A stretch of 22,328 nt of DNA from a virus (lineage: Duplodnaviria > Heunggongvirae > Uroviricota > Caudoviricetes). The notes beneath the pieces are model-generated. The model saw only the letters and a program-made list of their open reading frames with translations. It was not told where the DNA came from and made no database searches. Below are positions 4,369 to 22,328 of this stretch, in pieces. A program made the translations under genes and the position numbers. Position 1 is the first letter of the stretch. Each line of letters opens with the position of its first letter. The stretch lies in IMG/VR virus record IMGVR_UViG_648861009_000003; one strand, given 5' to 3'.

Positions 4369-4814
4369 NNNNNNNNNNNNNNNNNNNNNNNNNNNNNNNN
4401 NNNNNNNNNNNNNNNNNNNNNNNNNNNNNNNNNNNNNNNNNNNNNNNNNNNNNNNNNNNNNNNNNNNNNNNNNNNNNNNNNNNNNNNNNNNNNNNNNNNN
4501 NNNNNNNNNNNNNNNNNNNNNNNNNNNNNNNNNNNNNNNNNNNNNNNNNNNNNNNNNNNNNNNNNNNNNNNNNNNNNNNNNNNNNNNNNNNNNNNNNNNN
4601 NNNNNNNNNNNNNNNNNNNNNNNNNNNNNNNNNNNNNNNNNNNNNNNNNNNNNNNNNNNNNNNNNNNNNNNNNNNNNNNNNNNNNNNNNNNNNNNNNNNN
4701 NNNNNNNNNNNNNNNNNNNNNNNNNNNNNNNNNNNNNNNNNNNNNNNNNNNNNNNNNNNNNNNNNNNNNNNNNNNNNNNNNNNNNNNNNNNNNNNNNNNN
4801 NNNNNNNNNNNNNN
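4369..4814. other. Run of 446 N (assembly/scaffold gap)
   Basis: Contiguous N characters; both flanks are copies of the same gam sequence. Confidence 0.95.
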
Positions 4815-5111
4815 CCGTTTATACCTCTGAATCAATATCAACCTGGTGTGAAGCAATGGTTTCAACCATGTACCGGATGTGTTCTGCCATGCGCTCCTGA
4901 AACTCACATCGTCATCAACGCACGGGTAATGGCTTTTTGCTGGCCCGTGGCGTTGCAAATGATCGATGCATAGCGATTCAAACAGGTGCTGGGGCAGGCC
5001 TTTTTCCATGTCGTCTGCCAGTTCTGCCTCTTTCTCTTCACGGGCGATCTGCTGGTAGTGACGCGCCCAGCTCTGAGCCTCAAGACGATCCTGAATGTAA
5101 TAAGCGTTCAT
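4815..5111 (-). CDS. gam: gam, copy B: intact start ([34 protein letters not shown]...) but 3' part frameshifted by single-base deletions near the gap
   Basis: The N-terminal 56 aa match short-form lambda Gam; downstream the sequence is the same as 4105..4368 but with at least 6 one-base deletions. No in-frame upstream ATG for a long Gam form. Confidence 0.75.
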
Positions 5112-5186
5112 GGCTGAACTCCTGAAAATGGCTGTGAAAAAATCGCCCGCGGAATGCCAGGCTGATTCGGAAAACAGGAAAGGGGA

Positions 5187-5477
5187 TTAGTGATTCAGAC
5201 CGTTGCCGCGTCCGTCGAGAAAAACTTCCACGAGCAAGTCACGGGTATAAGTGCGCTCAATGCCGCGATGCAGATAAAGTCGTCCGCGTAAATTAGCTGA
5301 TGCAGTCCAGGTACCATCTTTGCGTTTGACCAGCATTCCTGGCATGACCGCACCGCGATTAACGGTCTGCGTTCCGTAATGTTGATGAACCATAAAAACT
5401 CCTGCCCGTAAGCTGGGCTGCTGAACATATAAAGACTTCTGCGCGTATTCAGGCGGTGGATGGCCGCCGGTTGTCAT
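5187..5477 (-). CDS. Hypothetical early-left protein (96 aa), first ORF downstream of the putative pL
   Basis: ORF on the early-left strand upstream of gam, in the kil/cIII position; no family recognised; start codon uncertain (internal Met at MVHQHYG or MPGMLVK possible). Confidence 0.3.
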   Translation of the reverse strand: MTTGGHPPPEYAQKSLYVQQPSLRAGVFMVHQHYGTQTVNRGAVMPGMLVKRKDGTWTASANLRGRLYLHRGIERTYTRDLLVEVFLDGRGNGLNH

Positions 5478-5644
5478 AACTAAGCCGCCTCGTTGAAGCG
5501 ACTAAGGTATGAAATGTTGAGTTGATTTCAGCTGGTCACACCGACGTTCACGCGTCCGTTTCATCCCTCGCACTCCCCGAAGCCTGCTGAAATTCAAGCT
5601 GCGGATCTAAGCGGTCATCGCAACGGTGAATCAGGTAGTTGCCG

Positions 5645-5750
5645 TATCGTTGTGTTGTTGCGATGAACTTATTTAAAACTATAGTTGTTTTATCGTCAAC
5701 AACAAAAGTTGTTTTATTGGTTGTTTTAGATATAACTGGTTGTATTTAGG
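5645..5750 (-). promoter_or_regulatory. Candidate oL/pL operator-promoter region
   Basis: Cluster of TGGTTGT(T)/AACAAC motifs (5652-5660, 5683-5690, 5699-5704, 5708-5714, 5719-5726, 5738-5745) resembling the inverted half-sites in the cI-cro intergenic region. Confidence 0.35.
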
Positions 5751-5837
5751 ATGGATTTATTTTGTGACTTGAATCGCATAGCGATAACTGAAGCGAGGTT
5801 ATGGTGGTTTTTTTAACGGTGTGTGTGATGAGGGGAG

Positions 5838-5867
5838 GGCAAAAGAAAACCCGGCACGGTGGCCGGG
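5838..5867 (-). terminator. Rho-independent terminator downstream of the accessory operon
   Basis: Minus-strand RNA would form the GC-rich hairpin cccggccaccgtgccggg followed by ttttctttt, 8 nt after the stop of the 310-aa gene. Confidence 0.55.
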
Positions 5868-5875
5868 TAGCATCA

Positions 5876-6808
5876 CTATTCGATTTTTTTAACCATGTAG
5901 TTACGTCGTGATGTTCCTAATCTTTCATTGTGAATCTCAGAAACGCTTACTACGAGCGATATTCGTTCACCAACTTTATATTTACTTTGAATTTCTCCTA
6001 ACATATCAATCGGATAAGAAGCCTTTATTTTTCCAAGCTCGCTTGCAATCTCCAATTTCCCGTACATGGATAAAATAGCAAGTTCGCCTGATATATGCTC
6101 ATCCGGTAGCTGAATGACCTTCGTTAAAGCTAAGCGAGCATTCAGTTTTTTTATATCTTCTGAAGAAATTGACACTTGTCTGGTACCATCACTTAAAGGT
6201 CCAATCCAAGTAAGATCAAAGTTAAGACTATATTTTTCGCACTCATTTATGATGTTTTTTAGGTTAGCTGTTGATTGCGAACCAATTTCGGCAATTTTAG
6301 CCGTGAATGTTTCTTCATCAATGGATGAGAGTAGTGCAAAAATCTCCTTAACAGCATGACTGGATACTGTTTCGATGAGCTCGCAAGAACCAGTAGAAAA
6401 AGTAACACCTAACTTCGTCGAACCTGGACGCAAGTCTGCCAATCTCATGTCTAATGATTTTTTAACATCAATCGGCACACGACTAGAATCTTTCCCAGAT
6501 CCAAGTCGGTAAACTGCTTTCTGTACAAGGGATGCGAGATTACCTGAAATTACAGATAGAATATCTAACGGAATAGACCCGAAATCGACCAAAACACCTT
6601 TTAATCTCAACTCCATGAAATCACGTAAAGGATGTTGGTTATCGATTGCACGTTGTCTCTCTCGGAGATCGCTCAGATGGGAGTCAAGTGATCTAAATAT
6701 AATGTCATCAGCAAATGATCTCCCCTTATTTTGAGCAAGCAGATCCACATCGCGTTGAATGAACGCAATTCGCTCCTTGAGGGAGTTGAATGTTTTTTCT
6801 TCGCTCAT
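5876..6808 (-). CDS. Unknown 310-aa protein, second gene of the repressor-linked accessory operon
   Basis: Long ORF with no family recognised; start overlaps the upstream NTase-like gene by 4 nt (ATGA), implying translational coupling; contains R-x4-H (RSLDSH) and R-x5-H (RAIDNQH) strings that are too common to count as evidence of HEPN. Confidence 0.75.
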   Translation of the reverse strand: MSEEKTFNSLKERIAFIQRDVDLLAQNKGRSFADDIIFRSLDSHLSDLRERQRAIDNQHPLRDFMELRLKGVLVDFGSIPLDILSVISGNLASLVQKAVYRLGSGKDSSRVPIDVKKSLDMRLADLRPGSTKLGVTFSTGSCELIETVSSHAVKEIFALLSSIDEETFTAKIAEIGSQSTANLKNIINECEKYSLNFDLTWIGPLSDGTRQVSISSEDIKKLNARLALTKVIQLPDEHISGELAILSMYGKLEIASELGKIKASYPIDMLGEIQSKYKVGERISLVVSVSEIHNERLGTSRRNYMVKKIE

Positions 6809-7278
6809 AACATTACCCTCACGAGGCCTTTAGGATTCTCCTTCCGATCAAAACCAAACCACCCTCTCCAGTAACTTCGCCTTTCACTATAATCGATTTC
6901 TGGATGATTTTCAGGCAGCAAAAGAACGTCAATGCTGTAGTTTTCTTTAATAAAATCTCTATTTAACAATGAGCTGACCAATGGCATCAGCGTGTTTGGC
7001 AAAGAGTTTAGGGCCAAATAATCGACGACCACGAGTATATCTATGTCATCAGGTTCAGGTTTCTCTGTAGTGAATGAACCATCGATCCACACTTCAGAGA
7101 AACATAGACACTGCTGATTAACAAGTTTAAATTGCTCAATAAGCTGTATAAAATTACAGTATAGCATACTTCTTCTAACGGATTTTGGGAAGGTGTCGAC
7201 ACAAAGAGACTTGATGCCATCACTATCCATATCATGAAATCCTGCTGTAAGAAGAGGTGGGAAGCTAGGCTTTTCCAT
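6805..7278 (-). CDS. Minimal pol-beta-type nucleotidyltransferase-like protein (157 aa)
   Basis: Motif VWIDGSFTTEKPEPDDIDILVVVD fits the GS-x9-DxD signature of minimal nucleotidyltransferases, with a further acidic residue in YSIDVLLLPE; lies 81 nt downstream of the repressor gene on the same strand. Confidence 0.7.
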   Translation of the reverse strand: MEKPSFPPLLTAGFHDMDSDGIKSLCVDTFPKSVRRSMLYCNFIQLIEQFKLVNQQCLCFSEVWIDGSFTTEKPEPDDIDILVVVDYLALNSLPNTLMPLVSSLLNRDFIKENYSIDVLLLPENHPEIDYSERRSYWRGWFGFDRKENPKGLVRVML

Positions 7279-7359
7279 CCTAAGTCCTTGTTTATGCCAT
7301 ATAGTGTTCTATTTAATATTCTTGAAAAGAGTGTGCCTTAAAAAGCTACAGGCTAATTA

Positions 7360-8049
7360 TTAACCATGCTTCCTGTACGTCTGCGGCATGCTCCCAATAA
7401 CCTTACCGAAGATGAACACCCGGTTCATCTCGTCTTTCTCGATCGGGTCCCACGGTGAGTAGCTTTTGTTATCAGAGATGACCAGCAGCTTATCCTTCAT
7501 CATTTGCAGGCGCTTTACATGGGCTGTGTCGTCGTACAGAAACGCATAGATACCATCACCGTCGAAAGATTTAACTGTGATATCAACGAACAGCAGATCA
7601 CCTGGTTCGATCGTTCCTGACATGCTGTCACCACGCACGTTAATGATGCGGATATTTTCCGCCTTCCTACCATCGAACATGTGACGAGCATCGTCAAACG
7701 AGTACTCAACCGAGCGTAGAACTTCTACAAACTCACGGTTGATGACTCCCGGCCCAGCACTGACTTCTATATCAAGAACGTCAATCTTGAAGTATTTGGA
7801 ATGGCTGACAGTTGATTGTATTGGTTGCACTGTACTGTCTGACATATTTCCAACGCCAGAAGATAACCATTCTGCGCGCACACCCAAAGCGTTCGCGATC
7901 TCCACGATTTTAGTTGTTTGATTAGCTTTCCCTGTTTCGATTTTCTGAATAGCAGCCTGGCTAACCCCGACCAAATCCCCAAGCGCCTTTTGTGTAAGGC
8001 CTCGCGCTAATCTGGCTTCTTTAAGTCTTTCTGAGAGTGTTGTTTTCAT
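7360..8049 (-). CDS. cI: CI-like prophage repressor (HTH_XRE N-terminal domain plus S24 LexA-like peptidase domain)
   Basis: Start taken at MKTTLSERLKEARLARGLTQKALGDLVGVSQAAIQKIETGK (HTH); C-terminal ...INVRGDSMSGTIEPGDLLFVD...HVKRL carries the S24 Ser/Lys autocleavage motifs; divergent from the cro-like gene. Confidence 0.9.
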   Translation of the reverse strand: MKTTLSERLKEARLARGLTQKALGDLVGVSQAAIQKIETGKANQTTKIVEIANALGVRAEWLSSGVGNMSDSTVQPIQSTVSHSKYFKIDVLDIEVSAGPGVINREFVEVLRSVEYSFDDARHMFDGRKAENIRIINVRGDSMSGTIEPGDLLFVDITVKSFDGDGIYAFLYDDTAHVKRLQMMKDKLLVISDNKSYSPWDPIEKDEMNRVFIFGKVIGSMPQTYRKHG

Positions 8050-8054
8050 AGTCC

Positions 8055-8153
8055 AAATGTACAACCAAGGTTTTATTCCATCAAACGAAAATGGTTGTTG
8101 ACTAAAAACAACCATAGTTTTAATCTTGATTCAAATTAACCACGGAGGTTGTT
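8055..8153. promoter_or_regulatory. Candidate oR/pR/pRM region between cI and cro
   Basis: Divergent intergenic region containing the inverted repeat ATGGTTGTT-N7-AACAACCAT (8091..8115) and a further ACAACCA half-site (8061..8067). Confidence 0.5.
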
Positions 8154-8384
8154 ATGAACCCAGCTATCAAAACAGCGATCAATATCGTTGGTTCACAAAA
8201 GAAACTGGGCGCTGCTTGCGAAGTTTCACAGCAGGCCGTCTATAAGTGGCTTCACAACAAAGCAAAGGTATCCCCTGAACATGTCGGCAGCATTGTTACG
8301 GCTACTGGTGGAGTAGTGAAGGCATACCAGATTCGCCCGGATCTTCCGAAGTTGTTTCCACACACCGAAAAGAACGCAGCTTAA
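8154..8384 (+). CDS. cro: Cro-like HTH protein (YdaS family)
   Basis: 76 aa, divergent from the repressor; AINIVGSQKKLGAACEVSQQAVYKWL is an HTH resembling Rac YdaS-type Cro proteins. Confidence 0.8.
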   Translation: MNPAIKTAINIVGSQKKLGAACEVSQQAVYKWLHNKAKVSPEHVGSIVTATGGVVKAYQIRPDLPKLFPHTEKNAA

Positions 8385-8453
8385 ATTTCCATTTCACGCT
8401 CTTTAACAATAAGCAATCAACTTAACAGTCAATTCAAACTAAAGGAGTCAATT

Positions 8454-8993
8454 ATGCAACCACTTCCATACCAACAGACTAGCGGATTTAGCCCGACTGC
8501 GGTGATAAATCGTTCTCAAACAAAACAGGTGCCAGGCCACGAAAAAATCCGTGATGCCGTCCGCGCCTGGTCGGCTGTAGATAATCAGGATGTCGTTGCC
8601 ACACTCATTGTGAATGAGTATCGGGAGCAGGGCGGCGGCACCATCGATTTCCCTGATGATGTCAGCCGTGCACGCCAGAAGCTGTTCCGCTTCCTCGATA
8701 ACAAATTCGATTCTGAAAAATACCGAAATAACGTGCGTGAACTGACCCCGGCAATTCTGGCGGTACTACCGCTGGAATATCGCGGTTACCTGGTTGAGCA
8801 GGATAGCTTCATGGCTAGGTTGGCTGAAATGGAAAAGGAACTCAGTGAGGCAAAACAGGCTGTCATTCTCAACGCACCACGCCACCAGAAACTGAAGGAA
8901 ATTAGTGAAGGTATTGTATCGATGTTTCGTGTGGACCCAGATCTGGCTGGTCCATTGATGGCGATGGTTACTACCATGCTGGGGGCGATATGA
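8454..8993 (+). CDS. YdaT-like protein in the cII position
   Basis: 179 aa; segments EYREQGGGTIDFPDD and LTPAILAVLPLEYRGYL resemble the Rac YdaT family as I recall it; located between cro and O. Confidence 0.65.
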   Translation: MQPLPYQQTSGFSPTAVINRSQTKQVPGHEKIRDAVRAWSAVDNQDVVATLIVNEYREQGGGTIDFPDDVSRARQKLFRFLDNKFDSEKYRNNVRELTPAILAVLPLEYRGYLVEQDSFMARLAEMEKELSEAKQAVILNAPRHQKLKEISEGIVSMFRVDPDLAGPLMAMVTTMLGAI

Positions 8994-9079
8994 CAGGTTC
9001 AGAAATGGCGAAAGCCGGTCTGCTGGAACAGAACCGACTTTCAGGTGCAAATCGTAACACACTCATTGCGGGAGGAATT

Positions 9080-10009
9080 ATGGCAAACACTGCTGAGATA
9101 TTCAATTTTCCAGTGCCGGATGCGGCACAAAAGGAGCCGCGCGTGGCAGATCTCGATGATGGTTATACGCGCATTGCAAATGAGTTGCTGGAAGCTGTGA
9201 TGCTGGCCGGATTAACACAGCACCAGCTTCTGGTCTTCCTGGCTGTCATGCGCAAAACATATGGCTTTAATAAAAAACTGGATTGGGTGAGCAACGAGCA
9301 ACTTTCCGAATTGACCGGGATATTGCCGCACAAGTGTTCTGCTGCAAAAAGCGTTCTGGTAAAGCGTGGGATTCTTATTCAGAGCGGGCGGAATATCGGC
9401 ATTAATAATGTGGTCAGTGAATGGTCAACATTACCCGAATCAGGTAAGAAAAATAAAGTTTACCTGAAAGAGGTAAATTTACCTGAATCAGGTAAGAAAA
9501 GTTTACCCAAATCAGGTAAAGGCGTTTACCCGAATCAGGTAAACACAAAAGACAAACTAACAAAAGACAATATAAAACCTTTTTCGTCCGAGAATTCTGG
9601 CGAATCCTCTGACCAGCCAGAAAACGATCTTCCTGTGGTGAAACCGGATGCTGCAATTCAGAGCGGCAGCAAGTGGGGGACAGCAGAAGACCTGACCGCC
9701 GCAGAGTGGATGTTTGACATGGTGAAGACTATCGCACCATCAGCCAGAAAACCGAATTTTGCTGGGTGGGCTAACGATATCCGCCTGATGCGTGAACGTG
9801 ACGGACGTAACCACCGCGACATGTGCGTGCTGTTCCGCTGGGCCTGCCAGGACAACTTCTGGTCCGGTAACGTGCTGAGTCCGGCCAAACTCCGCGACAA
9901 GTGGACCCAGCTCGAAATCAACCGGAACAAGCAACAGGCTGGCGTGACAGTCGGCAAACCAAAACTCGACCTGACAAACACTGACTGGATTTACGGGGTG
10001 GATCTATGA
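9080..10009 (+). CDS. O: Replication initiator O (chimeric: divergent N-terminal iteron-binding domain, lambda-like C-terminal domain)
   Basis: Start taken at MANTAEIFNF (GGAGG SD) by analogy to lambda O MTNTAKILNF; the C-terminal ~150 aa (SENSGESSDQPENDL...WTQLEINRNKQQAGV...DWIYGVDL) match lambda O; iterons lie inside the gene. Confidence 0.9.
   Translation: MANTAEIFNFPVPDAAQKEPRVADLDDGYTRIANELLEAVMLAGLTQHQLLVFLAVMRKTYGFNKKLDWVSNEQLSELTGILPHKCSAAKSVLVKRGILIQSGRNIGINNVVSEWSTLPESGKKNKVYLKEVNLPESGKKSLPKSGKGVYPNQVNTKDKLTKDNIKPFSSENSGESSDQPENDLPVVKPDAAIQSGSKWGTAEDLTAAEWMFDMVKTIAPSARKPNFAGWANDIRLMRERDGRNHRDMCVLFRWACQDNFWSGNVLSPAKLRDKWTQLEINRNKQQAGVTVGKPKLDLTNTDWIYGVDL
9431..9585. repeat. Replication origin: five 17-bp iterons plus an A-rich region inside O
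   Basis: ttacccgaatcaggtaa (9431), ttacctgaaagaggtaa (9459), ttacctgaatcaggtaa (9479), ttacccaaatcaggtaa (9503), ttacccgaatcaggtaa (9526), followed by acacaaaagacaaactaacaaaagacaatataaaacc. Confidence 0.8.
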
Positions 10010-10707
10010 AAAACATCGCCGCACAGATGGTTAACTTTGACCGTGAGCAGATGCGTCGGATCGCCAACAACATGCCGGAACAGTATGACGAAAAGCCACA
10101 GGTACAGCAGGTAGCGCAGATCATCAACGGTGTGTTCAGCCAGTTACTGGCAACTTTCCCGGCGAGCCTGGCTAATCGTGAGCAGAACGAACTGAACGAA
10201 ATCCGCCGCCAGTGGGTTCTGGCTTTCCGGGAAAACGGGATCACCACGATGGAACAGGTTAACGCAGGAATGCGCGTAGCCCGTCGGCAGAATCGACCAT
10301 TCCTGCCATCCCCCGGACAGTTTGTAGCCTGGTGCCGGGAAGAAGCATCCGTTATTGCCGGACTACCAAACACCAGCGAGCTGGTTGATATGGTTTACGA
10401 GTATTGCCGGAAGCGTGGCCTGTATCCGGATGCAGAGTCTTATCCGTGGAAATCAAACGCGCACTACTGGCTGGTTACCAACCTGTATCAGAACATGCGG
10501 GCCAATGCGCTTACTGATGCGGAATTACGGCGCAAGGCTGCCGATGAACTGACTTGTATGACCGCGCGAATTAACCGTGGTGAGGCGATACCTGAACCAG
10601 TAAAACAACTTCCTGTCATGGGCGGTAGACCTCTAAATCGTGCACAGGCTCTGGCGAAGATCGCAGAAATCAAAGCGAAGTTCGGACTGAAAGGAGCAAC
10701 TGTATGA
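10006..10707 (+). CDS. P: Replication protein P (DnaB helicase loader)
   Basis: 233-aa translation MKNIAAQMVNFDREQMRRIANNMPEQYDEKPQVQQVAQIINGVFSQLL... is near-identical to lambda P. Confidence 0.96.
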   Translation: MKNIAAQMVNFDREQMRRIANNMPEQYDEKPQVQQVAQIINGVFSQLLATFPASLANREQNELNEIRRQWVLAFRENGITTMEQVNAGMRVARRQNRPFLPSPGQFVAWCREEASVIAGLPNTSELVDMVYEYCRKRGLYPDAESYPWKSNAHYWLVTNLYQNMRANALTDAELRRKAADELTCMTARINRGEAIPEPVKQLPVMGGRPLNRAQALAKIAEIKAKFGLKGATV

Positions 10708-11006
10708 CGGGCAAAGAGGCAATTATTCATTACCTGGGGACGCATAAGAGCTTCTGTGCGCAGGACGTTGCTGCGGTAACAGGCGCAACAGTAACCAGTA
10801 TAAATCAGGCTGCGGCTAAAATGGCACGGGCAGGAATCTTGGTCGTTGATGGTAAGGTCTGGCGAACGGTGTATTACCGGTTCGCTACCAGGGAAGAACG
10901 GGAAGGAAAGGTGAGCACGAATCTGATTTTCAAGGAGTGTCGCCAGAGTGCCGCGATGAAACGAGTGTTGGCAGTGTATGGAGATATGAACTTAAACTTG
11001 CTGTGA
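10704..11006 (+). CDS. ren: Ren (Rex-exclusion protein) with a divergent C-terminus
   Basis: MTGKEAIIHYLGTHKSFCAQDVAAVTGATVTSINQAAAKMARAGILVVDGKVWRTVYYRFATREEREGK... matches lambda Ren except for the last ~8 residues. Confidence 0.9.
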   Translation: MTGKEAIIHYLGTHKSFCAQDVAAVTGATVTSINQAAAKMARAGILVVDGKVWRTVYYRFATREEREGKVSTNLIFKECRQSAAMKRVLAVYGDMNLNLL

Positions 11007-11254
11007 CGGTTTTCATCGGTAACACACCATGTAATCTAGCAGTCAGCTTAGAAATAGGAGCGGCAGTTAAAGATTTTTCAGTTAGTAGAAAATTACTGTT
11101 ATTGCAGGGATCTAATCACCGGAGAGTCGTTCCATTTGTCTTATGATTACCTGAAGTCCGTTAGTTCGTTGGTAATCACCGTTTTTGTTAGAGAAGTAAG
11201 CATCGCTGACAAAATATTCTCAACGATGCCTGCTTTATTGCTACTACAAATTAA

Positions 11255-12756
11255 TTAAATTGCATCTGCAAACTCTGGGGTTTTTCGCTCAGGTATAATT
11301 GATGAGTTGCTGTTGTCACTTTTTTTATTTTCATGATTACGAATAGCCAATGACTCATTAAAGTCTTTTGCGACTGCTGTCTCAATAAATTCAATTTCTG
11401 AATCAGAGTGTTTTTTAACAGCTTCTTTGATCTCATCCAGAGTAACATAGAAAAACTCTTTTCTACGATTTACAAGATTGACTCTCTTTTTATCGAAGAC
11501 ATCATGTAGTTTTTTTCTAATGATGGAGCGTCCTCCGAATAAATCATGGCATGTACATCAAAAATAAAAGGAACAGATGCATCACCGAGCTCATTTACAC
11601 GGTCTTGCGGATCAAGACGTCGTGTCATGCCTATTTTATAAACATTCTCCCCAAAAGAACCTATGTTCGAAATAATATAAACATGACCTTGTTTGGTTTG
11701 TTGTGCCATGGATAATGCTCTTTGATGCTTTGATTCAGCCTGCGACAAACTCTGTTCTAGTTCGGCAATGCGATTTTCGAGGCGCTGCTTCATGTCACCA
11801 GTAACTTTTTCCATTTCCTTTCTTGCAGCTTCAATTGCTTTTTTATAACGGCGCTCTTCTGCCTCTGCGTCTTGCATGGCCTTTTCTATTTCTCGTTGTG
11901 CACGCTCCTCCTCTCTCATTTGTGCCCTTATTTCTGCCTGTTCTTCTTTTTCTTTCTGTTTTTGCTCACGATATTCATGGGTAAGCCACAATTCCTCAAG
12001 TTTTTTATTGAGGTATTTAGTGTTTATATATATGTGATTTTGCTCGTTTAGTTTATTTATGGCCTCAAATGCCTTTGTGATGCGTTCTTCCATTTTAGTG
12101 ATGTTTTTCCACGTGCAATTGCTAATTGCAGCATCACATTCATTATTAAATGCTCTAGTAGTTAGCCTGATATTTCTGTCTGTCATTTTTTTACCCTCTG
12201 CTCGAGAGCCTTCAACAGTCCATTGGGTTGTACAATATACTGCGCCAGAGTGGGTTTTATCCCGCAGCATTAATTTCTGTTCATCCCTGATGGATTTTAT
12301 TTTGTTTTTAAATTGCTCTGAATCTTCAAAATTAAAATGAGGTTCGTAAAATCCTAGTTCGGCTAGCTCAACATCTTCTGAATAAATAGAAATTTGCCTT
12401 ACTAGTTTATCATATATTTCTTTCTTCTCTTTATAAGTTCTTCTTAGCTCTTGGATTTGTTTATTGATACCATCCATTTTTTCAATGGTGTTTGTTAGTT
12501 CATTATTGGCATTTTCTTTTACTTTTAGGGATTCTTCTTTTATTATGGAGCATTCTTGCTCTGTTTTCTCAATAAGCTTCTTACATTCTTCTTCTACATT
12601 AAAATAATCTGCAAAGCGAGATTTGTATTCTTCATTTTTTTGATTGCTATCACTTAATTCTAATTGTATTTTTTTGATGCGTTTGATTGCAGCTATATAA
12701 AGAACAAGAACAACCAATAAAAATATGATTGCAAGTAATAGAGGAGTTTGAGTCAT
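11255..12756 (-). CDS. DUF4041/T5orf172 (GIY-YIG-like)-family protein with N-terminal TM helix and long coiled-coil; reading frame broken at a T7 homopolymer (11510..11516)
   Basis: The 428-aa ORF (11470..12756) contains GHVYIISNIGSFGENVYKIGMTRRLDPQDRVNELGDASVPFIFDVHAMIYSEDAPSL; the family-typical C-terminus LHDVFDKKRVNLVNRRKEFFYVTLDEIKEAVKKH... continues in the -1 frame to a stop at 11255. N-terminus LLLAIIFLLVVLVLYIAAI is hydrophobic; the gene is strongly AT-rich. Confidence 0.75.
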
Positions 12757-13065
12757 TCGTGCTATTCCTTACGGACAATTTAAGACGTTTTGTATTAAAT
12801 CCTGTTCAATGTGTATGCGGGTGATTGCTACCGCTTACAATCTTCATAATTATCAGTTAGATAGACTCGCTAGTAAATAATTTCATTTTTTGCAATATTC
12901 TTATTGAATATTTCAATTTATGAAATGAACTCTTTATCCTTTCAAGGTGAAAGGTTTCTTCTTCGGAAATATTTGCTCTCGTGTGACGTATAAAGACCTT
13001 TGATTTTCAAAAATCAGTAGGGAATAATATAGTTACTGTCGGCCTGAACACCCGGTGGTGGGGTT

Positions 13066-13155
13066 GCGCTAAACGGGGACGTTTATGCGCACACACAATC
13101 CAAACTCTCATCTCCATTCACAGATGCAGAAATGCACCTACGATTTTTTACATTC
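13066..13155. repeat. Direct repeat copy 1 (~90 bp, about 92% identical to 14999..15088)
   Basis: gcgctaaacggggacgtttatgcgcacacacaatccaaactctcatctccattcacagatgcagaaatgcacctacgattttttacattc. Confidence 0.9.
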
Positions 13156-13246
13156 GGTGTTTTACTTCGACAGCCAGAATTGGGAGTCTCTATTCGTCTG
13201 GCGGCTAAAGGTGATATGGAAATCGTTATGTTTTGGCCTGAGGTAG
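13085..13246 (+). CDS. Small ORF (53 aa) sharing an SD and N-terminal ~20 aa with the ylcH-like ORF
   Basis: GGGGAC SD followed by ATG; MRTHNPNSHLHSQMQKCTYDFLH... parallels [23 protein letters not shown] of the second repeat copy; could be a duplicated gene start rather than a functional gene. Confidence 0.3.
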   Translation: MRTHNPNSHLHSQMQKCTYDFLHSVFYFDSQNWESLFVWRLKVIWKSLCFGLR

Positions 13247-13568
13247 TTGTAACTGTTGTAGCAGCTATGGATGTGATCATCATGGTGTCCATTTACTGGG
13301 GTTGACGACATGATTTATCCGGCGCTATATTCTGTGCGTTGCCGCAAAATCGGCACACGGGATTGGCGTCCCGGGATACTACTCAACGCATACCGCGTTA
13401 AGCGGTTTTTTTGTGCGCTAAGCACGGCTATGCCCAAATTATGGTGGGCTGTGTGAGGGCTTCTTCGGAAGCGCCGGGTTTGAGTAGCCGGTTACGCCAA
13501 CCTTACACAGTTCACCACCAGTCGATTGGCGTCGTTGGTGGTGATGGTTAACCTGATGAGGTGATACT

Positions 13569-14177
13569 ATGACTACTCAATTAGCATTCCACAAAACGAC
13601 GTTTACCCCGATTTGCCACAATAACAGAATTTGGCTTACTGCCACTGAAGTTGGTTTAGCACTGGAATATGCGGACGATAAAGCAGTTCAGCGCATTTAC
13701 TCTCGGCACTCAGATGAATTCACAGATATGATGACAAGGGTGGTCAAAGTGACCACCCCTCGTGGAATGCAGGAGTCTCGAGTATTTAGCCTTCGCGGAG
13801 CCCATTTGATCGCCATGTTTGCTCGTACTCCTGTGGCCAAAGAATTCCGCCGCTGGGTTCTGGATATTCTCGATCGAGAAGTTCAACAATCCCCAATCAC
13901 AAAACAATTCACTGATAACGAACTTTGCACACTCGCCTGGTTATGGCGAGCAAGTGATACGATGTTAACCGCCTGCCAGAACGTTACGCCCCTTCTTCAG
14001 GTCGCAGAGCATCGCGAAGCAGGTAGATTCACTTCAATCGAACAAGAATATCCTCGGATACTCAACAGGGCGCGAGAAATCCTTGCCAGAGAAACGGCGC
14101 ATGTAAAATTCCAACCGTGGCAGGATGATAAGTGGAGTCGTGTGTTACCATATTTCCGTCAGAATCTGTTGCAATAA
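13569..14177 (+). CDS. Bro-N / P22 AR N-terminal domain protein (Roi/antirepressor-like)
   Basis: 202 aa; N-terminal IWLTATEVGLALEYADDKAVQRIYSRH...SRVFSLRGAHLIAMFARTPVAKEFRRWVLDIL fits the Bro-N/AntA-type domain pattern. Confidence 0.75.
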   Translation: MTTQLAFHKTTFTPICHNNRIWLTATEVGLALEYADDKAVQRIYSRHSDEFTDMMTRVVKVTTPRGMQESRVFSLRGAHLIAMFARTPVAKEFRRWVLDILDREVQQSPITKQFTDNELCTLAWLWRASDTMLTACQNVTPLLQVAEHREAGRFTSIEQEYPRILNRAREILARETAHVKFQPWQDDKWSRVLPYFRQNLLQ

Positions 14178-14194
14178 AGTCACTAGTTAGAAAT

Positions 14195-14238
14195 ACTGCC
14201 AGCATTCTGCGATGACGGAAGTGCTGGCATTTTTTTTG
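14195..14238 (+). terminator. Rho-independent terminator after the Bro-N gene
   Basis: ctgccagcat...gtgctggca stem followed by tttttttt, 20 nt after the stop codon. Confidence 0.5.
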
Positions 14239-14412
14239 GTAATGTGCGAGTCCATTTCATAAAATACGGGTACTGGAACTGGACGATATAATCTAAAAGA
14301 TACCATTATCAGTAGCATTAAAATCGCTATGTGCCGATACGGATATAAATTATATTGATTGTTCACATACCTTATTGGATATTACTGAGGGGTGTTTATA
14401 TAAGGTGTAACG

Positions 14413-14937
14413 ATGATGTGGAACTTTGACAGTGCCGACTTAAGTGCAATAGCAGCAGGCATTTCTGCGTTTGGCACATTAGCCGCAGCGGGGTCGGCGC
14501 TTGCAAGTTGGTGCACGTCAAAAAAAGCGCTGCAGCTACAAAATAGAGTTTACCTTTATGAGTCTTTAAAGGCTTGCGCTGAGAGAGCCAATTCATCAGC
14601 TAAAGATAAGCGCGGATCTGAATGGAGCGTTAATGATGCAGCGGATATCATCAGGTGCCTAGTACGGGCGATGGAGCTCATCAAGCAGGATAGCCAGCAG
14701 AAAGAAGGTAATCAGGCATTAATGTTGAAACAGTACTTTGTTAATCTGCTAATAATGGAACTGTACGAGGAAGTTCATAACGGTGATGCGGCTGATTCTG
14801 TTTTTAAAAGTACGGAACCTACACAAGTACTTGATAACTTATGGAGCAAATGGCAGGAGGCTATAGCTTTTTTGATATTTGGAATTACCCAGTTGCGACT
14901 GAGGAAGACTTGGCAGACTAATTTTCAGCACATTTGA
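14413..14937 (+). CDS. Unknown 174-aa protein with an N-terminal hydrophobic (membrane-anchor-like) segment
   Basis: ORF with its own upstream AT-rich promoter-like region after a terminator; residues ~11-34 (LSAIAAGISAFGTLAAAGSALASW) are hydrophobic; no family recognised. Confidence 0.6.
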   Translation: MMWNFDSADLSAIAAGISAFGTLAAAGSALASWCTSKKALQLQNRVYLYESLKACAERANSSAKDKRGSEWSVNDAADIIRCLVRAMELIKQDSQQKEGNQALMLKQYFVNLLIMELYEEVHNGDAADSVFKSTEPTQVLDNLWSKWQEAIAFLIFGITQLRLRKTWQTNFQHI

Positions 14938-14998
14938 TTTCCAATAATCAACCAGCCATAATCATGCCATTGGAGCTTGAACAACTCCGGTGACTTCT

Positions 14999-15088
14999 GC
15001 GCTAAACGGGGACGTTTATGCGCACATACAATCCAAACTCTCTTCTCCCTTCACAGATGCAGAGATGCACCTGCGATTTTTTGCATCC
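14999..15088. repeat. Direct repeat copy 2 (~90 bp)
   Basis: gcgctaaacggggacgtttatgcgcacatacaatccaaactctcttctcccttcacagatgcagagatgcacctgcgattttttgcatcc. Confidence 0.9.
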
Positions 15089-15119
15089 AGCGTTTGACCT
15101 CTGCGGAGGTGAAGCGTGA
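15018..15119 (+). CDS. ylcH: Small ORF (33 aa), ylcH-like
   Basis: SD plus ATG within repeat copy 2; [33 protein letters not shown]; sits directly upstream of ybcN as ylcH does in DLP12 (order recalled from memory). Confidence 0.4.
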
Positions 15120-15571
15120 ACCTCCCACAAGACGGCATCAAATTGCATCGTGGTAACTTCACCGCTATCGGCCAGCAGATCCAGCCTTATCTGGAGGAAG
15201 GCAAATGCTTTCGCATGGTGCTTAAACCGTGGCGTGAGAAACGCAGTCTTTCCCAGAATGCACTCAGCCACATGTGGTACAGCGAAATCAGTGAATACCT
15301 CATCAGCAGGGGTAAAACGTTCGCCACTCCAGCTTGGGTAAAAGATGCTCTCAAACACACATATCTCGGTTATGAAACCAAAGACCTGGTTGATGTCGTA
15401 ACCGGTGAGATCACCACTATCCAGTCGTTACGCCATACCTCCGATCTTGATACCGGAGAGATGTATATCTTCCTGTGTAAGGTTGAAGCCTGGGCGGTGA
15501 ATATTGGCTGCCACCTGACTATTCCGCAGAGCTGCGAGTTCCAGCTGCTGCGCGACAAGCAGGAGGCGTAA
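15116..15571 (+). CDS. ybcN: NinB-family recombination protein (YbcN-like)
   Basis: 151 aa with a GTG start; first gene of a tightly overlapping nin operon; the [16 protein letters not shown] region resembles the lambda NinB SLDQN motif. Confidence 0.75.
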
Positions 15572-15741
15572 TGGCTACACCGCTTATTCGTGTCATGAAC
15601 GGACACATCTACAGAGTACCAAATCGTCGTAAGCGTAAACCTGAGCTGAAGCCATCCGAAATACCAACACTGCTCGGATATACCGCCAGCTTGGTTGATA
15701 AAAAATGGTTGCGACTGGCAGCAAGGAGGAATCATGGCTGA
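15571..15741 (+). CDS. ninE: NinE-family protein (56 aa)
   Basis: [56 protein letters not shown] matches DLP12 NinE as I recall it; TAATG overlap with ybcN; shorter than the 60-aa ORF-track cutoff. Confidence 0.75.
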   Translation: MATPLIRVMNGHIYRVPNRRKRKPELKPSEIPTLLGYTASLVDKKWLRLAARRNHG

Positions 15742-16024
15742 TTTGAGAAAAGCAGCGCGTGGTCGGGAATGCCAGGTAAGAATCCCTGGCGTATGTAATG
15801 GCAATTCTGAGACGTCTGTACTGGCACATATCCGGCTGGCTGGATTGTGCGGTACCGGTATCAAACCGCCAGACCTGATTGCCACCATTGCATGTTCTGC
15901 CTGCCACGACGAAATCGACCGCCGCACGCATTTTGTTGACGCTGGATATGCAAAAGAATGCGCGCTGGAAGGTATGGCGAGAACGCAGGTTATCTGGCTG
16001 AAAGAGAGGGTAATTAAGGCGTGA
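15734..16024 (+). CDS. ybcO: YbcO-like protein (DUF1364, cysteine/histidine-rich putative nuclease)
   Basis: Start taken at [23 protein letters not shown]...[13 protein letters not shown]; overlaps the ninE 3' end and is followed by rusA, as in DLP12. Confidence 0.8.
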
Positions 16025-16383
16025 ATACTTACCACATCACACTACCCTGGCCTCCGAGCAATAATCGCTATTACCGCCATAATCGCGGGCGCACGCACGT
16101 CAGCGCAGAGGGGCAGGCATACCGCGATAACGTCGCCCGAATCATTAAAAACGCAATGCTGGATATCGGCCTGGCTATGCCTGTGAAAATCCGCATTGAG
16201 TGCCACATGCCGGATCGCCGTCGCCGTGACCTGGATAATCTGCAAAAAGCCGCTTTTGACGCACTCACTAAAGCAGGTTTCTGGCTGGATGATGCTCAGG
16301 TCGTTGATTACCGCGTTGTGAAGATGCCTGTTACCAAAGGTGGGAGGCTGGAACTGACCATCACCGAAATGGGGAATGAATGA
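16021..16383 (+). CDS. rusA: Holliday-junction resolvase RusA
   Basis: 120-aa translation [42 protein letters not shown]...[29 protein letters not shown] matches RusA. Confidence 0.95.
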
Positions 16384-16878
16384 TGTTTGAGTTTAATATN
16401 NNNNNNNNNNNNNNNNNNNNNNNNNNNNNNNNNNNNNNNNNNNNNNNNNNNNNNNNNNNNNNNNNNNNNNNNNNNNNNNNNNNNNNNNNNNNNNNNNNNN
16501 NNNNNNNNNNNNNNNNNNNNNNNNNNNNNNNNNNNNNNNNNNNNNNNNNNNNNNNNNNNNNNNNNNNNNNNNNNNNNNNNNNNNNNNNNNNNNNNNNNNN
16601 NNNNNNNNNNNNNNNNNNNNNNNNNNNNNNNNNNNNNNNNNNNNNNNNNNNNNNNNNNNNNNNNNNNNNNNNNNNNNNNNNNNNNNNNNNNNNNNNNNNN
16701 NNNNNNNNNNNNNNNNNNNNNNNNNNNNNNNNNNNNNNNNNNNNNNNNNNNNNNNNNNNNAGAACTTCTTCGCCACCGCTGGGGGCGTCTGCGCTTATAT
16801 CGTTTCCCCGGCTCTGTTTTGACCGATTACCGAATACTGAAGAATTACGCCAAAACACTGACAGGAGCAGGAGTATGA
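16380..16878 (+). CDS. ylcG: ylcG-like small gene split by the N-gap (5' part 16380..16399, 3' part 16761..16878)
   Basis: The 5' flank encodes MMFEFN and the 3' flank encodes [38 protein letters not shown]; joined by about 3 nt they would reconstitute a 46-aa protein matching DLP12 YlcG as I recall it. Confidence 0.6.
16400..16760. other. Run of 361 N (assembly/scaffold gap)
   Basis: Contiguous N characters; the flanks are the two halves of ylcG. Confidence 0.95.
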
Positions 16879-16963
16879 AGTCAGAGATAACAATCAACTA
16901 ATACTGTTTTGTTGATTTTTGCTTGTAATTGGCGTTCTGGTCTGAGTTTTGTGGAGTAAGTTG

Positions 16964-17347
16964 ATGCGTGATATTCAGATGGTTCTTGAGCGTTGGGGAG
17001 CGTGGGCGGCTAATAATCATGAAGATGTGACCTGGTCGTCCATTGCCGCCGGTTTTAAGGGATTAATTCCTTCAAAAGTAAAATCTCGCCCGCAATGTTG
17101 TGACGATGACGCGATGATCATTTGCGGGTGCATGGCCCGTCTGAAAAAGAACAACAGCGATTTGCACGATTTATTAGTAGATTATTATGTAGTCGGTATG
17201 ACATTCATGTCACTGGCAGGTAAGCATTGCTGCTCTGATGGTTATATCGGGAAAAGGTTACAAAAGGCTGAGGGCATAATTGAAGGGATGTTAATGGCAT
17301 TAGATATCCGGTTAGAGATGGATATCGTTGTTAATAACTCTAATTAA
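16964..17347 (+). CDS. quuD: Late-gene antiterminator Q (QuuD/phage 82 type)
   Basis: [60 protein letters not shown]... matches DLP12 QuuD; GGAG SD upstream of the ATG at 16964. Confidence 0.9.
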
Positions 17348-17369
17348 TATGCCAATTGTTTACTAAAAA

Positions 17370-17525
17370 TTATTAAAAATGGGGCGTTGAGACGCCCCCA
17401 AAAATAAAGGGTAATATATAACAGAAGGTTTATATAGTTAGAAGCAAGGTTGTGCTTCTAAAGGAAGTGGCTTGAGGGAGCCACTTATATGTTGGGGAGG
17501 CAACGCCTCCCGCAACATATCTTTT
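17370..17525. promoter_or_regulatory. Cluster of four GC-rich hairpins between Q and the nmpC 3' end (candidate pR'/qut/tR' and/or nmpC terminators)
   Basis: ggggcgttgagacgcccc; agaagcaaggttgtgcttct; gtggcttgagggagccac; gggaggcaacgcctccc. Confidence 0.4.
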
Positions 17526-17536
17526 TCGTAATCAGA

Positions 17537-18619
17537 TTAGAACTGGTAAACCAGACCTACAGCAACGATGTCATCAGTATCAATACCAGCTGTTTTGGTA
17601 AACTTACTATCGTCAATTAAGTTGATTTTGTAATCAACAAAAGTGGACATGTTTTTATTAAAGTAGTAAGTAGCACCGACATCGACATACTTGACTAAGT
17701 CTCGGTCACCATGAACACCAAGGTCTTTACCTTTTGACTGAAGGTAAGCAACAGATGGGCGCAGACCGAAGTCAAACTGATATTGTGCTACTGCTTCAAA
17801 GTTTTGTGCTTTGTTTGCAATATGGTTATTACCAAAAACGGTCATATTCTGAGTTTCAGAATATGTGGTAGCCAGATAGATATTGTTCGCATCATATTTC
17901 AGGCCTGCAGCCCATACTTCCGCATTTTTGCCGGAGGCATTGAATTTGCTCTTACCATAGGCGACCTGACCGTCAGTGCGATCTGATTTAGCATAGGTTG
18001 CACCCACGCCGAATCCTTCATACTCATAAGTAGTGGAGAAACCGAAACCATCACCATTGGCTTCAGTTACGTCAGTGCGGTCATTTTTACCCTGATACTG
18101 AGCAGCAAAGTTCAGGCCATCGACCAGACCAAAGAAGTCGTTGTTACGATAAGTTGCAACACCAGTAGTGCGACCAGTCATGAACACATCTGTTTGGGTC
18201 CAGGTATCACCACCGAATTCTGGCAGGACGTCAGTCCACGCACCGATGTCGTATGCTACACCGTAGTTACGGCCGTAATCGATTGAGCCGTAATCACCAA
18301 ATTTCAGGCCTGCAAATGCAAGACGGGTTTTGTCTTTGGAAGAACCTTGAGATTCAGCGCGGTTGCCTTTGAATTCATATTCCCACTGACCGAAACCAGT
18401 CAGTTGATCGTTGATTTGGGTTTCACCTTTGAAGCCAAGACGGGCATAAGTAGTATCACCATCATCTGCATCATTAGAGGAGAAGTAGTGCTTAGCATTA
18501 ACTTTCCCGTACAGATCCAGCTTGTTACTGTCTTTATTATAAATTTCAGCTGCCTGAGCAGACATCGCCATCAGTACTGATGCAGCTACAGCAGAAATTG
18601 CCACTGTTAATTTTTTCAT
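17537..18619 (-). CDS. nmpC: Outer-membrane porin NmpC/Lc (OmpC/OmpF/PhoE family), prophage moron
   Basis: 360 aa with a signal peptide ([23 protein letters not shown]), AEIYNKD...LDLYGK start and C-terminal ...VAVGLVYQF, typical of general porins; located between Q and the lysis genes as in DLP12 and PA-2. Confidence 0.95.
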
Positions 18620-19047
18620 CGTGAGCCCTTTTTTTTGAACTATTATTAAAAAATGATGTCACTGCGCGATAAATATTCATCTAATCAATGTGATTATTTC
18701 AAGATGTAAGTTTTGGTTTCTCGTTTAATTTGTGAAGTAGATCTCTATTTTTATCTGAACTTTTTTCTATCGAATCCTATTCATGGCTCTTGGCTGAATA
18801 AAAATAAATCTATTAGCCAATTTATATTAATGGCTGTTATTTATAAGTGCTCTATAATTTGAAGGTTCAATTTAAATTGGCTAAAAATAACGCTGGAAAT
18901 TATTTGTTGGTTATTTGTTGAGATTTGCTTATGTATTTGTAGTGGTGTTTTCAATACTCGGTAGCATTCTCGCAAATATCATTTAGTGGTTTACGTACGT
19001 AAAAAATTGGTTATGCTGTTAAGAGTGGTTACTTCGTCACACAGCTT

Positions 19048-19078
19048 AAACCCGCCGTCGAGCGGGTTTTTCCATTTT
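19048..19078 (+). terminator. Rho-independent terminator upstream of the holin gene (candidate tR')
   Basis: aaacccgccgtcgagcgggtttttcc: stem cccgc/gcggg followed by a T-run, about 115 nt upstream of the holin start. Confidence 0.5.
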
Positions 19079-19192
19079 TTGAGTCTCGATATTAGCTGAT
19101 AACCCAATACCTGAGTTATTCACTGACTCCGAGTCTGTTACGTTTCGTAGTATTCCCTCAATTTACACCCGCTTTGTCTGCGAGGTGGGGTT

Positions 19193-19408
19193 ATGAAATC
19201 CATGGATAAGTTAACAACGGGTGTCGCCTATGGCACCTCAGCAGGTAGTGCCGGGTACTGGTTTTTACAGCTGCTCGATAAAGTCACGCCCTCACAGTGG
19301 GCAGCAATAGGTGTGCTGGGTAGCCTGGTATTTGGCCTGCTGACGTACCTGACAAACCTTTATTTCAAGATTAAAGAAGATAAGCGCAAGGCTGCGAGAG
19401 GTGAATAA
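19193..19408 (+). CDS. essD: Pinholin S21 type with dual start (antiholin from Met1, holin from Met4)
   Basis: [71 protein letters not shown] matches phage 21 S21 / DLP12 EssD. Confidence 0.95.
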
Positions 19409-19905
19409 TGCCTCCATCATTACGAAAAGCTGTTGCTGCTGCTATTGGTGGCGGGGCTATTGCTATAGCATCTGTGTTAATCACTGGCCCAAGTGGTAAC
19501 GATGGTCTGGAAGGTGTGAGACATAATCCTTACAAAGACATAGTTGGTGTATGGACTGTATGTTACGGGCATACAGGAAAAGACATCATTCCCGGTAAAA
19601 CGTATACCGAAGCAGAGTGCAAAGCCCTCCTGAATAAAGACCTTGCCACTGTCGCCAGACAAATTAACCGGTACATCAAAGTCGATATACCGGAAACAAC
19701 GCGCGGCGCTCTTTACTCGTTCGTCTACAACGTGGGTGCTGGCAATTTCAGAACATCGACGCTTCTTCGCAAAATAAACCAGGGTGATATTAAAGGCGCA
19801 TGTGATCAGCTACGGCGCTGGACATACGCTGGCGGTAATCAATGGAAAGGACTGATGACTCGCCGTGAGATTGAGCGTGAAGTCTGTTTGTGGGGGAAAC
19901 AATGA
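19408..19905 (+). CDS. rrrD: SAR endolysin (R21-type lysozyme)
   Basis: 165 aa; N-terminal Gly/Ala-rich signal-anchor-release segment [20 protein letters not shown] followed by a lysozyme domain; TAATG overlap with the holin. Confidence 0.95.
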
Positions 19906-20369
19906 GCAGAGTAACCGCGATTATCTCCGCTCTGGTTATCTGCATCATCGTCTGCCTGTCATGGGCTGTTAATCATTACCGTGATAATGCAATCGCCTAC
20001 AAAGAACAGCGCGATAACAAGGCCAGTGAACTGGAGAAGGCGAACGCCACCATTACTGACATGCAGCAGCGCCAGCGTGATGCTGATGCACTCGATGATA
20101 AATACACGAAGGAGTTAGCTGATGCGAAAGCTGAAAATGATGCTCTTCGGCGCAAGCTTGATAATGGTGGTCGGGTGCTCGTCAAAGGAAAATGCCCTGT
20201 GCCATCCTCAGCCGAAACCTCCAGCGCCTCCGGCATGGGCAATGATGCCACCGTCGAACTCTCTCCAGTTGCTGGACGAAACGTTCTCGGTATCCGGGAC
20301 GGAATTATCCGCGACCAAACAGCATTGAGAACGCTTCAGGAATACATCAGGACGCAATGCCTTCGATGA
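19902..20369 (+). CDS. rzpD: Spanin inner-membrane subunit Rz
   Basis: Start at [23 protein letters not shown] (N-terminal TM) followed by a coiled-coil; ATGA overlap with the endolysin stop. Confidence 0.9.
20122..20328 (+). CDS. rzoD: Spanin outer-membrane lipoprotein Rz1, embedded in Rz in the +1 frame
   Basis: [21 protein letters not shown] has a signal peptide and VVGC lipobox, followed by a proline-rich segment [11 protein letters not shown]; classic embedded Rz1 arrangement. Confidence 0.8.
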
Positions 20370-20860
20370 TAGCGATAATTTTACTCATCATCCTTCACAT
20401 CTGGCTCTGTAGACAGGGTGGTGCTCACTTCTGGAGTGAATCCAGATTAAACATCTCATTGCTGATGCTTGATATTGAGCATTTTGCGCGCGGTAAGGGG
20501 CTGCGTTGAGATAAGAGCCAGTCATTACAAATACCAGGATTTAGCCTCGCATTCGCGGGGCTTTTTATTGCCATTACAAAAGCCACTTCCTACAGAGTGG
20601 CTTTGATAATGGCTTATACCCTACACGGGATAACTTAACTGATATCCCTTTTAAAGGATAAAGGTATTCAAGCCTGACACATCATGCGCTGTATCGTCGC
20701 CGTATTCCCGTATTAACAGAGACCGTAGCCCGACGGGGAACTCCTTCTGCGCGAGTGTGCGGGAATAATCAATAACGATGCACACCGGGGTTACCGGGTA
20801 CACATATTTCATCATGCCAGCGAGTCCGGTTCTGGCACGGAAGAAACCGGACGTTATGAT

Positions 20861-21271
20861 TTAGTGCGGAAATATTTGTGTAGTGTTCTGAATGTTCTCA
20901 GTAAAGAGTAATGAATTATCAAAGGTATAGTAATACCTTTTGTTTTCGTGGATATTTGTAATCCATCTGAAAACCCCTGCTGTAGCAAGATTTTTCCTGT
21001 ATTCGTAAAATGATAACTCTCCTGATTTGAATCCTTTTAAGGTGGCTTCTATAAGGCATTTATTTTTTGAAAATCTTACATTTACAACCTTACTCTGTCC
21101 TTTTATTAAAACCGTATTATCGTTTTCAAGAACAAGATGAATATTCTCTGTGGCTAAATAGTAAATGTAATGTGAGACATTGTGACGTTTTAGTTCAGAA
21201 TAAAACCAGTGATAGTTTAAATTATTTCGCACTTTATCGAATATTTGTTTAAAAATGGCAACCTGAGCCAT
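20861..21271 (-). CDS. ybcV: YbcV-like protein (DUF1398)
   Basis: Start at [43 protein letters not shown]...; in the post-lysis accessory region as in DLP12; family assignment from memory. Confidence 0.65.
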
Positions 21272-21328
21272 TGTAGTACCTTCCATGTGATATGAAGGTA
21301 CCTAGTCTGCACGATTATCTAAATTGCT

Positions 21329-21562
21329 TCAATCTGGTCTGACCTGCTTTCTGAGCAATTCAGTAATGTCACTCTTTTCTTTGTTTGCTTCAGGCGAAAC
21401 TCTTTTTTCTGAGCACAGTCTTCGGCGGCAGGCTTCAATGACCCAGGCTGAGAAATTCCCGGACCCTTTTTGATCAAGAGCAATGTTAATTTGTTCAATC
21501 ATTTGGTTAGGAAAGCGGATGTTGCGGGTTGTTGTTCTGCGGGTTCTGTTCTTCGTTGACAT
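21329..21562 (-). CDS. YlcI/YnfO-like small protein with ribbon-helix-helix-like region
   Basis: 77 aa; basic N-terminus then IRFPNQMIEQINIALDQKGSGNFSAWVIEACRRRL, resembling Arc/CopG-type RHH; positioned before cos/nu1. Confidence 0.55.
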   Translation of the reverse strand: MSTKNRTRRTTTRNIRFPNQMIEQINIALDQKGSGNFSAWVIEACRRRLCSEKRVSPEANKEKSDITELLRKQVRPD

Positions 21563-21751
21563 GAGGTTGTCCCGTATTCAGTGTCGCTGATTTGTATTGT
21601 CTGAAGTTGTTTTTACGTTAAGTTGATGCAGATCAATTAATATGATACCTGCGTCATAATTGATTATTTGACGTGGTTTGATGGCGTAGATGCACGTTGT
21701 GACATGCAGATGATAATTATTATCATTTTGCGGGTCCTTTCCGGCGATCCG

Positions 21752-21950
21752 ACAGGTTACGGGGCGGCGACCTCGCGGGTTTTCGCTATTTATGAAAATT
21801 TTCCGGTTTAAGGCGTTTCCGTTCTTCTTCGTCGTAACTTAATGTTTTTATTTAAAATACCCCCTGAAAAGAAAGGAAACGACAGGTGCTGAAAACGAAC
21901 TTTTGGGCCTCTGTCGTTTCCTTTCTCTGTTTTTGGCCGTGGAATGAACA
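21752..21950 (+). other. cos: cos site: cosN with the 12-nt cohesive-end sequence GGGCGGCGACCT (21762..21773) plus cosB-like region up to nu1
   Basis: gacaggttacg|gggcggcgacctcgcgggttttcgctatttatgaaaattttccggtttaaggcgtttccgttcttcttcgtc... is essentially identical to the lambda genome ends as I recall them. Confidence 0.9.
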
Positions 21951-22328
21951 ATGGAAGTCAACAAAAAGCAGCTGGCTGACATTTTCGGTGCGAGTATCCG
22001 TACCATTCAGAACTGGCAGGAACAGGGAATGCCCGTTCTGCGAGGCGGTGGCAAGGGTAATGAGGTGCTTTATGACTCTGCCGCCGTTATAAGATGGTAT
22101 GCCGAAAGGGATGCTGAAATTGAGAACGAAAAGCTGCGCCGGGAAGTTGAAGAACTGCGGCAGGCCAGCGAGACAGATCTCCAGCCAGGGACTATTGAGT
22201 ACGAACGCCATCGACTTACGCGTGCGCAGGCCGACGCACAGGAGCTGAAAAATGCCAGAGACTCCGCTGAAGTGGTGGAAACCGCATTCTGTACTTTCGT
22301 GCTGTCGCGGATCGCAGGTGAAATTGCC
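21951..22328 (+). CDS. nu1: Terminase small subunit Nu1 (5' partial; runs off the window end)
   Basis: [71 protein letters not shown]... matches lambda Nu1; no stop before the window end. Confidence 0.95.

Follow-up and report, generated by a model that had tools for sequence, protein, structure and literature searches.

The 361 Ns inside ylcG of a DLP12-type Escherichia coli prophage are very probably a wrongly sized scaffold gap for three bases

The window analysed here, i.e., the whole stretch of 22,328 nucleotides recorded as IMGVR_UViG_648861009_000003, contains two runs of Ns (4369–4814, 446 nt, and 16400–16760, 361 nt), and the second starts 20 nt into ylcG, a small gene between rusA and the gene for the Q antiterminator. 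Do these 361 Ns hide an insertion, cover real bases, join sequences that do not belong together, or simply stand for a gap of the wrong length? Comparison with complete genomes indicates that they are very probably a wrongly sized scaffold gap for the bases GGC in a draft E. coli assembly, and that ylcG is intact in the organism. Loci fetched for comparison are numbered with the prefix L, and L001 is from NZ_CP023142.1, the complete genome of strain CFSAN061770. The features around the gap are as follows.

16021–16383, plus strand: rusA, Holliday-junction resolvase of 120 aa (Pfam RusA, 82 bits; rusA is annotated at the matching place in NZ_CP023142.1).
16380–16399, plus strand: 5′ fragment of ylcG, codons 1–6 (MMFEFN) and the first two bases of codon 7, at the end of contig 2.
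16400–16760, no strand: 361 Ns, very probably a scaffold gap whose length was wrongly estimated, for three real bases (GGC).
16761–16878, plus strand: 3′ fragment of ylcG, the last base of codon 8, codons 9–46 and the stop, at the start of contig 3 (NCBIfam NF033498, 71.8 bits).
16964–17347, plus strand: quuD, Q-type late antiterminator of 127 aa (Pfam Phage_antitermQ, 181 bits; annotated as quuD in L001).

The Ns were already present in the public assembly. The window corresponds to positions 415998–438325 of NCBI scaffold GG774902.1 (GCA_000163215.1, a public draft E. coli assembly), and the locus L009 (GG774902.1:420410–438325) agrees with the window at all 17,916 positions compared, including the two runs of Ns. 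The scaffold was recognised by the rare 174-aa allele described below; a 34-mer with two of the assembly-specific indels had no match in the viral, genome or metagenome contig collections. Gene calls in GG774902.1 end at the N edges, and the NCBI entry for the 38-aa product encoded downstream of the gap is named 'YlcG family protein, partial' (WP_071985653.1) and lies on the same 438,325-bp scaffold. Given the same Ns in the NCBI record and this partial-protein entry, the Ns are part of the deposited record and not a mask added later. The start of the window coincides exactly with the stop of the integrase gene (1–1164, minus strand). Its end is position 438325, the end of the scaffold, inside the Nu1 small-terminase gene, and the structural genes of the prophage therefore lie on another scaffold.

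The distance between the two flanks of the second gap is 3 nt in every uninterrupted comparator, which confirms the claim of the initial annotation that the N gap lies inside ylcG and that its flanks nearly abut. The left flank ends with ...ATGATGTTTGAGTTTAATAT and is identical to the reference through the last base before the Ns, and the right flank begins with AGAACTTCTTCGCCACCGCTGG (in a longer reading, AGAACTTCTTCGCC...) and continues an open reading frame (ELLRHRW...GAGV*) to a stop at 16876–16878. With 500 nt from each side of the N run as the query, the 1000 flanking bases occupied a 1003-base span at 100% identity in 30 of the 30 best complete E. coli genomes. The matching records numbered 3548; of 60 sampled evenly from them, 58 contained both flanks, and all 58 had 3 nt between them, one span being 1 nt shorter at a position that was not located. 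The fetched loci across the site agree: L001–L008 have the 3-nt distance by alignment, L012 reads ...AATATGGCAGAAC directly, and the three bases of L001 between the flanks are GGC. The 200 nt on either side of the N run match many complete genomes at 100% identity and K-12 strains at 99.3%. We infer the content of the gap in the sequenced strain from these relatives.

Restoring the three bases yields an ordinary gene. As written, the two halves of ylcG are out of frame, since 361 leaves a remainder of 1 on division by 3; the left flank, GGC and the right flank together form a 141-nt open reading frame with a 46-aa product. The initial annotation had proposed that the Ns replace about three bases, for example ggc, in a 46-aa YlcG-like frame, and this was exact: the restored gene is identical at 141 of 141 positions to the annotated ylcG (WP_000971055.1) of NZ_CP023142.1. 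Against the NCBIfam model NF033498 (YlcG_phage_expr; curated cut-off 30 bits), the restored protein reaches 77.2 bits and the 38-aa fragment reaches 71.8 bits. The local copy of Pfam had no YlcG model and returned 0 families, and PF26818 (Phage_YlcG) is precomputed for the same gene. The gene is also in the expected place, a small frame (45–46 aa) between rusA and Q of a lambdoid prophage, with its ATG at 16380 overlapping the rusA stop in ATGA, and relatives keep the order rusA–ylcG–Q. The restored product shows no difference from the YlcG family, whereas the gene as deposited is split and out of frame. The junction is predicted to read ...TTTAATATGGCAGAACTT, and an amplicon from rusA to Q (16300–17000) is computed at 343 bp, matching the earlier expectation of about 340 bp for an artefactual gap.

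The initial annotation had also supposed that the window was put together from three contigs, and this was borne out, both N runs being assembly gaps. The contigs and their counterparts in L001 are listed below.

1–4368, no strand: contig 1, with int, xis-side genes, exo, bet and part of gam; corresponds to L001 2898–7263 (99.95% identical, 0 mismatches).
4815–16399, no strand: contig 2, with gam, kil, PDC-M63 A/B, cI/cro-like genes, O, P and ren, and further on PD-Lambda-1/SNIPE, the antirepressor module, nin genes and rusA; corresponds to L001 7001–18592 (99.92% identical, 0 mismatches).
16761–22328, no strand: contig 3, with the 3′ part of ylcG, quuD, the porin gene, lysis genes and the start of Nu1; corresponds to L001 18596–24163 (100% identical over 5568 nt).

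At least 25 complete genomes have the sequences of the three contigs in the same order and orientation, collinear at 99.8–100% identity, as do L002 and CP163909.1 (L008). The window has the lambdoid order int, exo-bet-gam, cI/cro, O-P, nin, rusA, Q and lysis, and it shares genes, gene order and integration-side neighbours with the DLP12-type prophages (at tRNA-Arg beside fimZ in E. coli K-12 and in NZ_CP023142.1). The attachment site itself is outside the window, and in the collinear L001 tRNA-Arg and fimZ lie just outside int. In the rusA–ylcG–quuD segment only the written record differs from these prophages, with 361 Ns for GGC. The window includes genes for recombination, replication and lysis as well as the beginning of a packaging gene, and relatives have the full set of head genes; the prophage presumably carries more phage genes than DLP12 of K-12. 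In the complete genome CP163909.1, which the RefSeq E. coli set does not include, gam and ylcG are intact and the gene order is the same, and this genome shares with the window a rare 174-aa allele (14413–14937) found on only 4 contigs on record. Among closed genomes, CP163909.1 is probably the nearest to the source strain. In the phage collection, relatives are only 98% identical or less.

A chimeric scaffold is very unlikely. Contig 3 would in that case come from another lambdoid prophage in this genome, and misleading read pairs would have joined it to contig 2. Close relatives do have two or three places matching the rusA–ylcG–Q region, modules do reassort within this group of prophages (L005 is 99.9% identical to the window left of the ylcG gap and 93.5% right of it), and the size of the gap is wrong. 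Against this, contigs 2 and 3 stand side by side in the same orientation in at least 25 complete genomes and in L008, and the two halves of ylcG complete one open reading frame exactly. A mis-join would need to have recreated the commonest natural arrangement by accident. The linkage of the three contigs is therefore well supported, though only indirectly, by comparison with complete genomes.

The first N run shows how far the written lengths depart from the true ones. Its features are as follows.

4369–4814, no strand: 446 Ns, a scaffold gap between two contigs that truly overlap by 263 bases (flank mapping to complete genomes).
4104–4368, minus strand: end of contig 1, overlap copy A, with the 3′ 258 reference bases of gam (window 4109–4368) and one-base insertions at 4333 and 4340 (alignment to L001).
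4815–5111, minus strand: start of contig 2, overlap copy B (4815–5072) and complete gam (4819–5111) (alignment to L001).

A single stretch of gam, 263 reference bases long, is present on both sides of this run, and the 1000 bases flanking the run fit a 740-base span in 25 of the 25 complete genomes listed. The gam copy at the start of contig 2 is frameshifted by seven one-base indels (4818–4944). Between the window and L001 there are 0 substitutions and 11 one-base indels; nine of the 11 are unique to the window, all within 130 nt of the gam gap, and the other two are shared with other assemblies. True relatives differ from the window chiefly by substitutions, e.g., L003 with 139 mismatches and a single gap opening, whereas the differences confined to the window are indels only and lie at the gam gap, which argues that the contig ends there are error-rich. 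These errors are dominated by changes of homopolymer length, a pattern that may be a sign of flow-type (454-like) sequencing. The gam region occurs in two places in most of the closest genomes, and an independent draft of a near-identical prophage (L006) also breaks inside gam, at window position 5029. Because the two contigs share these 263 bases, gam only seems to be duplicated, and its frameshifts are likewise artefacts. Given this overlap and the collinearity in at least 25 complete genomes, the recommendation in the initial annotation that linkage across both gaps be treated as unverified was over-cautious, although it stands as far as read-level proof is concerned.

The lengths of the two N runs also bear on how the scaffold was made. 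The flanks of both gaps are collinear with closed genomes, and the true distances are +3 nt for the 361 Ns and −263 nt for the 446 Ns, so that the written lengths are too large by +358 nt at the ylcG gap and +709 nt at the gam gap. Reference-guided scaffolding, which had been suggested earlier, does not agree with these values: every close complete genome has +3 and −263 nt, and distances of 361 or 446 nt at these sites occur in none of the genomes listed (30/30, 25/25 and 58/58). Neither 446 nor 361 is a fixed placeholder. Non-round and wrongly sized N lengths would therefore fit estimates from read pairs rather than distances copied from a reference. The gaps resemble the sized scaffold gaps of paired-read drafts in that the N lengths are non-round, the adjoining contigs are correctly ordered and oriented, the sequence is repeated in the genomes of close relatives, and the contig ends at the gam gap are error-rich, overlapping and unmerged. 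They differ from well-sized gaps of this kind in that both estimates are too large.

A genuine insertion under the Ns is highly improbable. On that reading an IS or another repeated element of a few hundred bases (about 360 nt), specific to this strain, would disrupt ylcG just upstream of Q and, being present in many copies, would have been omitted from the scaffold and replaced by Ns. Scaffold gaps whose flanks abut in a reference are the typical footprint of IS insertions. Furthermore, the estimates at the gam gap are off by about 700 nt, and 361 Ns would thus be compatible with an element of the size of IS1, which is 768 bp long. An IS5 is inserted elsewhere in this prophage in strains HR5-1 and HR12-1; as a candidate for the insertion in ylcG it was rejected, as it sits between the DUF1398 gene and ynfO. 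An insertion is expected to leave a target-site duplication, i.e., flanks overlapping by 2–9 nt relative to the empty site, and instead 3 nt (GGC) are missing. No insertion at this site was found among the 30 best complete genomes, the 58 of 58 sampled records or the 8 loci fetched across it, ylcG is intact in the nearest complete relative, and the window's only other run of Ns can be shown to be an artefact. Almost certainly wrong is the view that the Ns mask 361 real bases one for one, applied by the submitter or a pipeline; one of the collections used is described as containing a few masked stretches, but the Ns are also in the NCBI copy of the assembly with gene calls and a partial-protein entry stopping at their edge, the same treatment at the gam gap would require gam to be duplicated in tandem over 706 nt, with nine one-base indels as the only differences between the copies, and no relative has extra sequence at either gap. 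The masked element of about 360 bp that the initial annotation offered as an alternative found no support.

Why a contig would break within ylcG is only broadly explained: the lambdoid sequence here is conserved and would occur more than once in the genome. In most of the 30 best genomes, the 1361 nt across the gap match two or three places, and both flanks match two places in two of the closest complete genomes; in NZ_CP030768.1, the only close genome listed for both flank searches, each flank has two places. Public records contain partial YlcG proteins of almost all lengths between 33 and 44 aa, each on 3–24 contigs, and breaks within ylcG are therefore routine. The exact position of this break showed no enrichment among public drafts, the 38-aa fragment occurring on 3 contigs and the neighbouring lengths on 0–24. 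Two more specific explanations were rejected. A repeat or mosaic boundary exactly at the gap is not seen in L003–L007, where divergence does not begin there and no sharp boundary was found. A recurrent break point had been considered because contigs start within 2 nt of the same base, but this is a selection effect, as neighbouring partial lengths are equally common or commoner. The contigs with such starts (L014–L022) belong to assemblies of unrelated isolates and metagenomes. In L015 and L016, lipocalin and 2-thiouracil-desulfurase-like genes, rather than phage lysis genes, come after the Q gene, which suggests a prophage remnant in a different setting.

Several other genes of the window deserve description. 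A PD-Lambda-1/SNIPE-type defence gene (DUF4041 and MUG113; 11251–12756, minus strand; PADLOC, 561 bits) encodes 428 aa in the window and 500 aa in L001 and L012. A run of A7 for A8 at about 11510 cuts the gene short inside the C-terminal nuclease domain, and an open reading frame of 65 aa remains downstream. Since L002–L008 and 45 index blocks have the same 428-aa allele, the difference seems to be a genuine polymorphism of wide distribution rather than a sequencing error. Between kil and the cI-like repressor gene, a two-gene pair (5876–7278, minus strand) matches the PADLOC candidate defence system PDC-M63, with component B of 310 aa (142 bits) and component A of 157 aa (DUF6932, 144 bits). 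Rfam identified isrK (13340–13412) and C4 antisense RNA (13437–13522) just upstream of a Bro-N/P22-antirepressor gene (13569–14177), and this region looks like a c4-ant immunity module of the P1/P7 style. A 104-nt direct repeat (13065–13168 and 14998–15101, 89% identical) brackets the antirepressor module and the next open reading frame. In that part of the window, the frame at 14413–14937 has a run of T6 for T7 at about 14868, which lengthens the product from the usual 169 aa to 174 aa. Between Q and the lysis genes lies an OmpC/NmpC-like porin gene (17537–18619, minus strand, 360 aa), the most divergent segment among otherwise similar prophages; the mismatches of relatives cluster from 17579 onward.

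The course of events that best fits the scaffold gap would be as follows. The assembler would have ended one contig 20 nt into ylcG and started the next 3 nt further on, perhaps because the genome contains another, diverged version of this conserved lambdoid segment. The scaffolder would then have joined the contigs in the correct order and orientation and written 361 Ns as its estimate of the distance, with gap sizes possibly taken from read-pair distances in a flow-type (454-like) assembly. The gam gap would be the outcome of the same process, in which two error-rich contig ends with a 263-base overlap were left unmerged. The intact ylcG would encode a small YlcG-family protein of 46 aa, its start overlapping the rusA stop, upstream of Q.

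The feature is very probably an ordinary artefact of assembly that conceals nothing biological, and both the gene and the type of prophage are known. The split ylcG and the duplicated, frameshifted gam are not to be taken as pseudogenes, as a tandem duplication or as an insertion site, and the lengths of the N runs in GG774902.1 are unusable as distances. Because closed genomes show the same arrangement, it is reasonable to assign the defence-type genes of the middle contig (PD-Lambda-1/SNIPE and the PDC-M63 pair) to the prophage.
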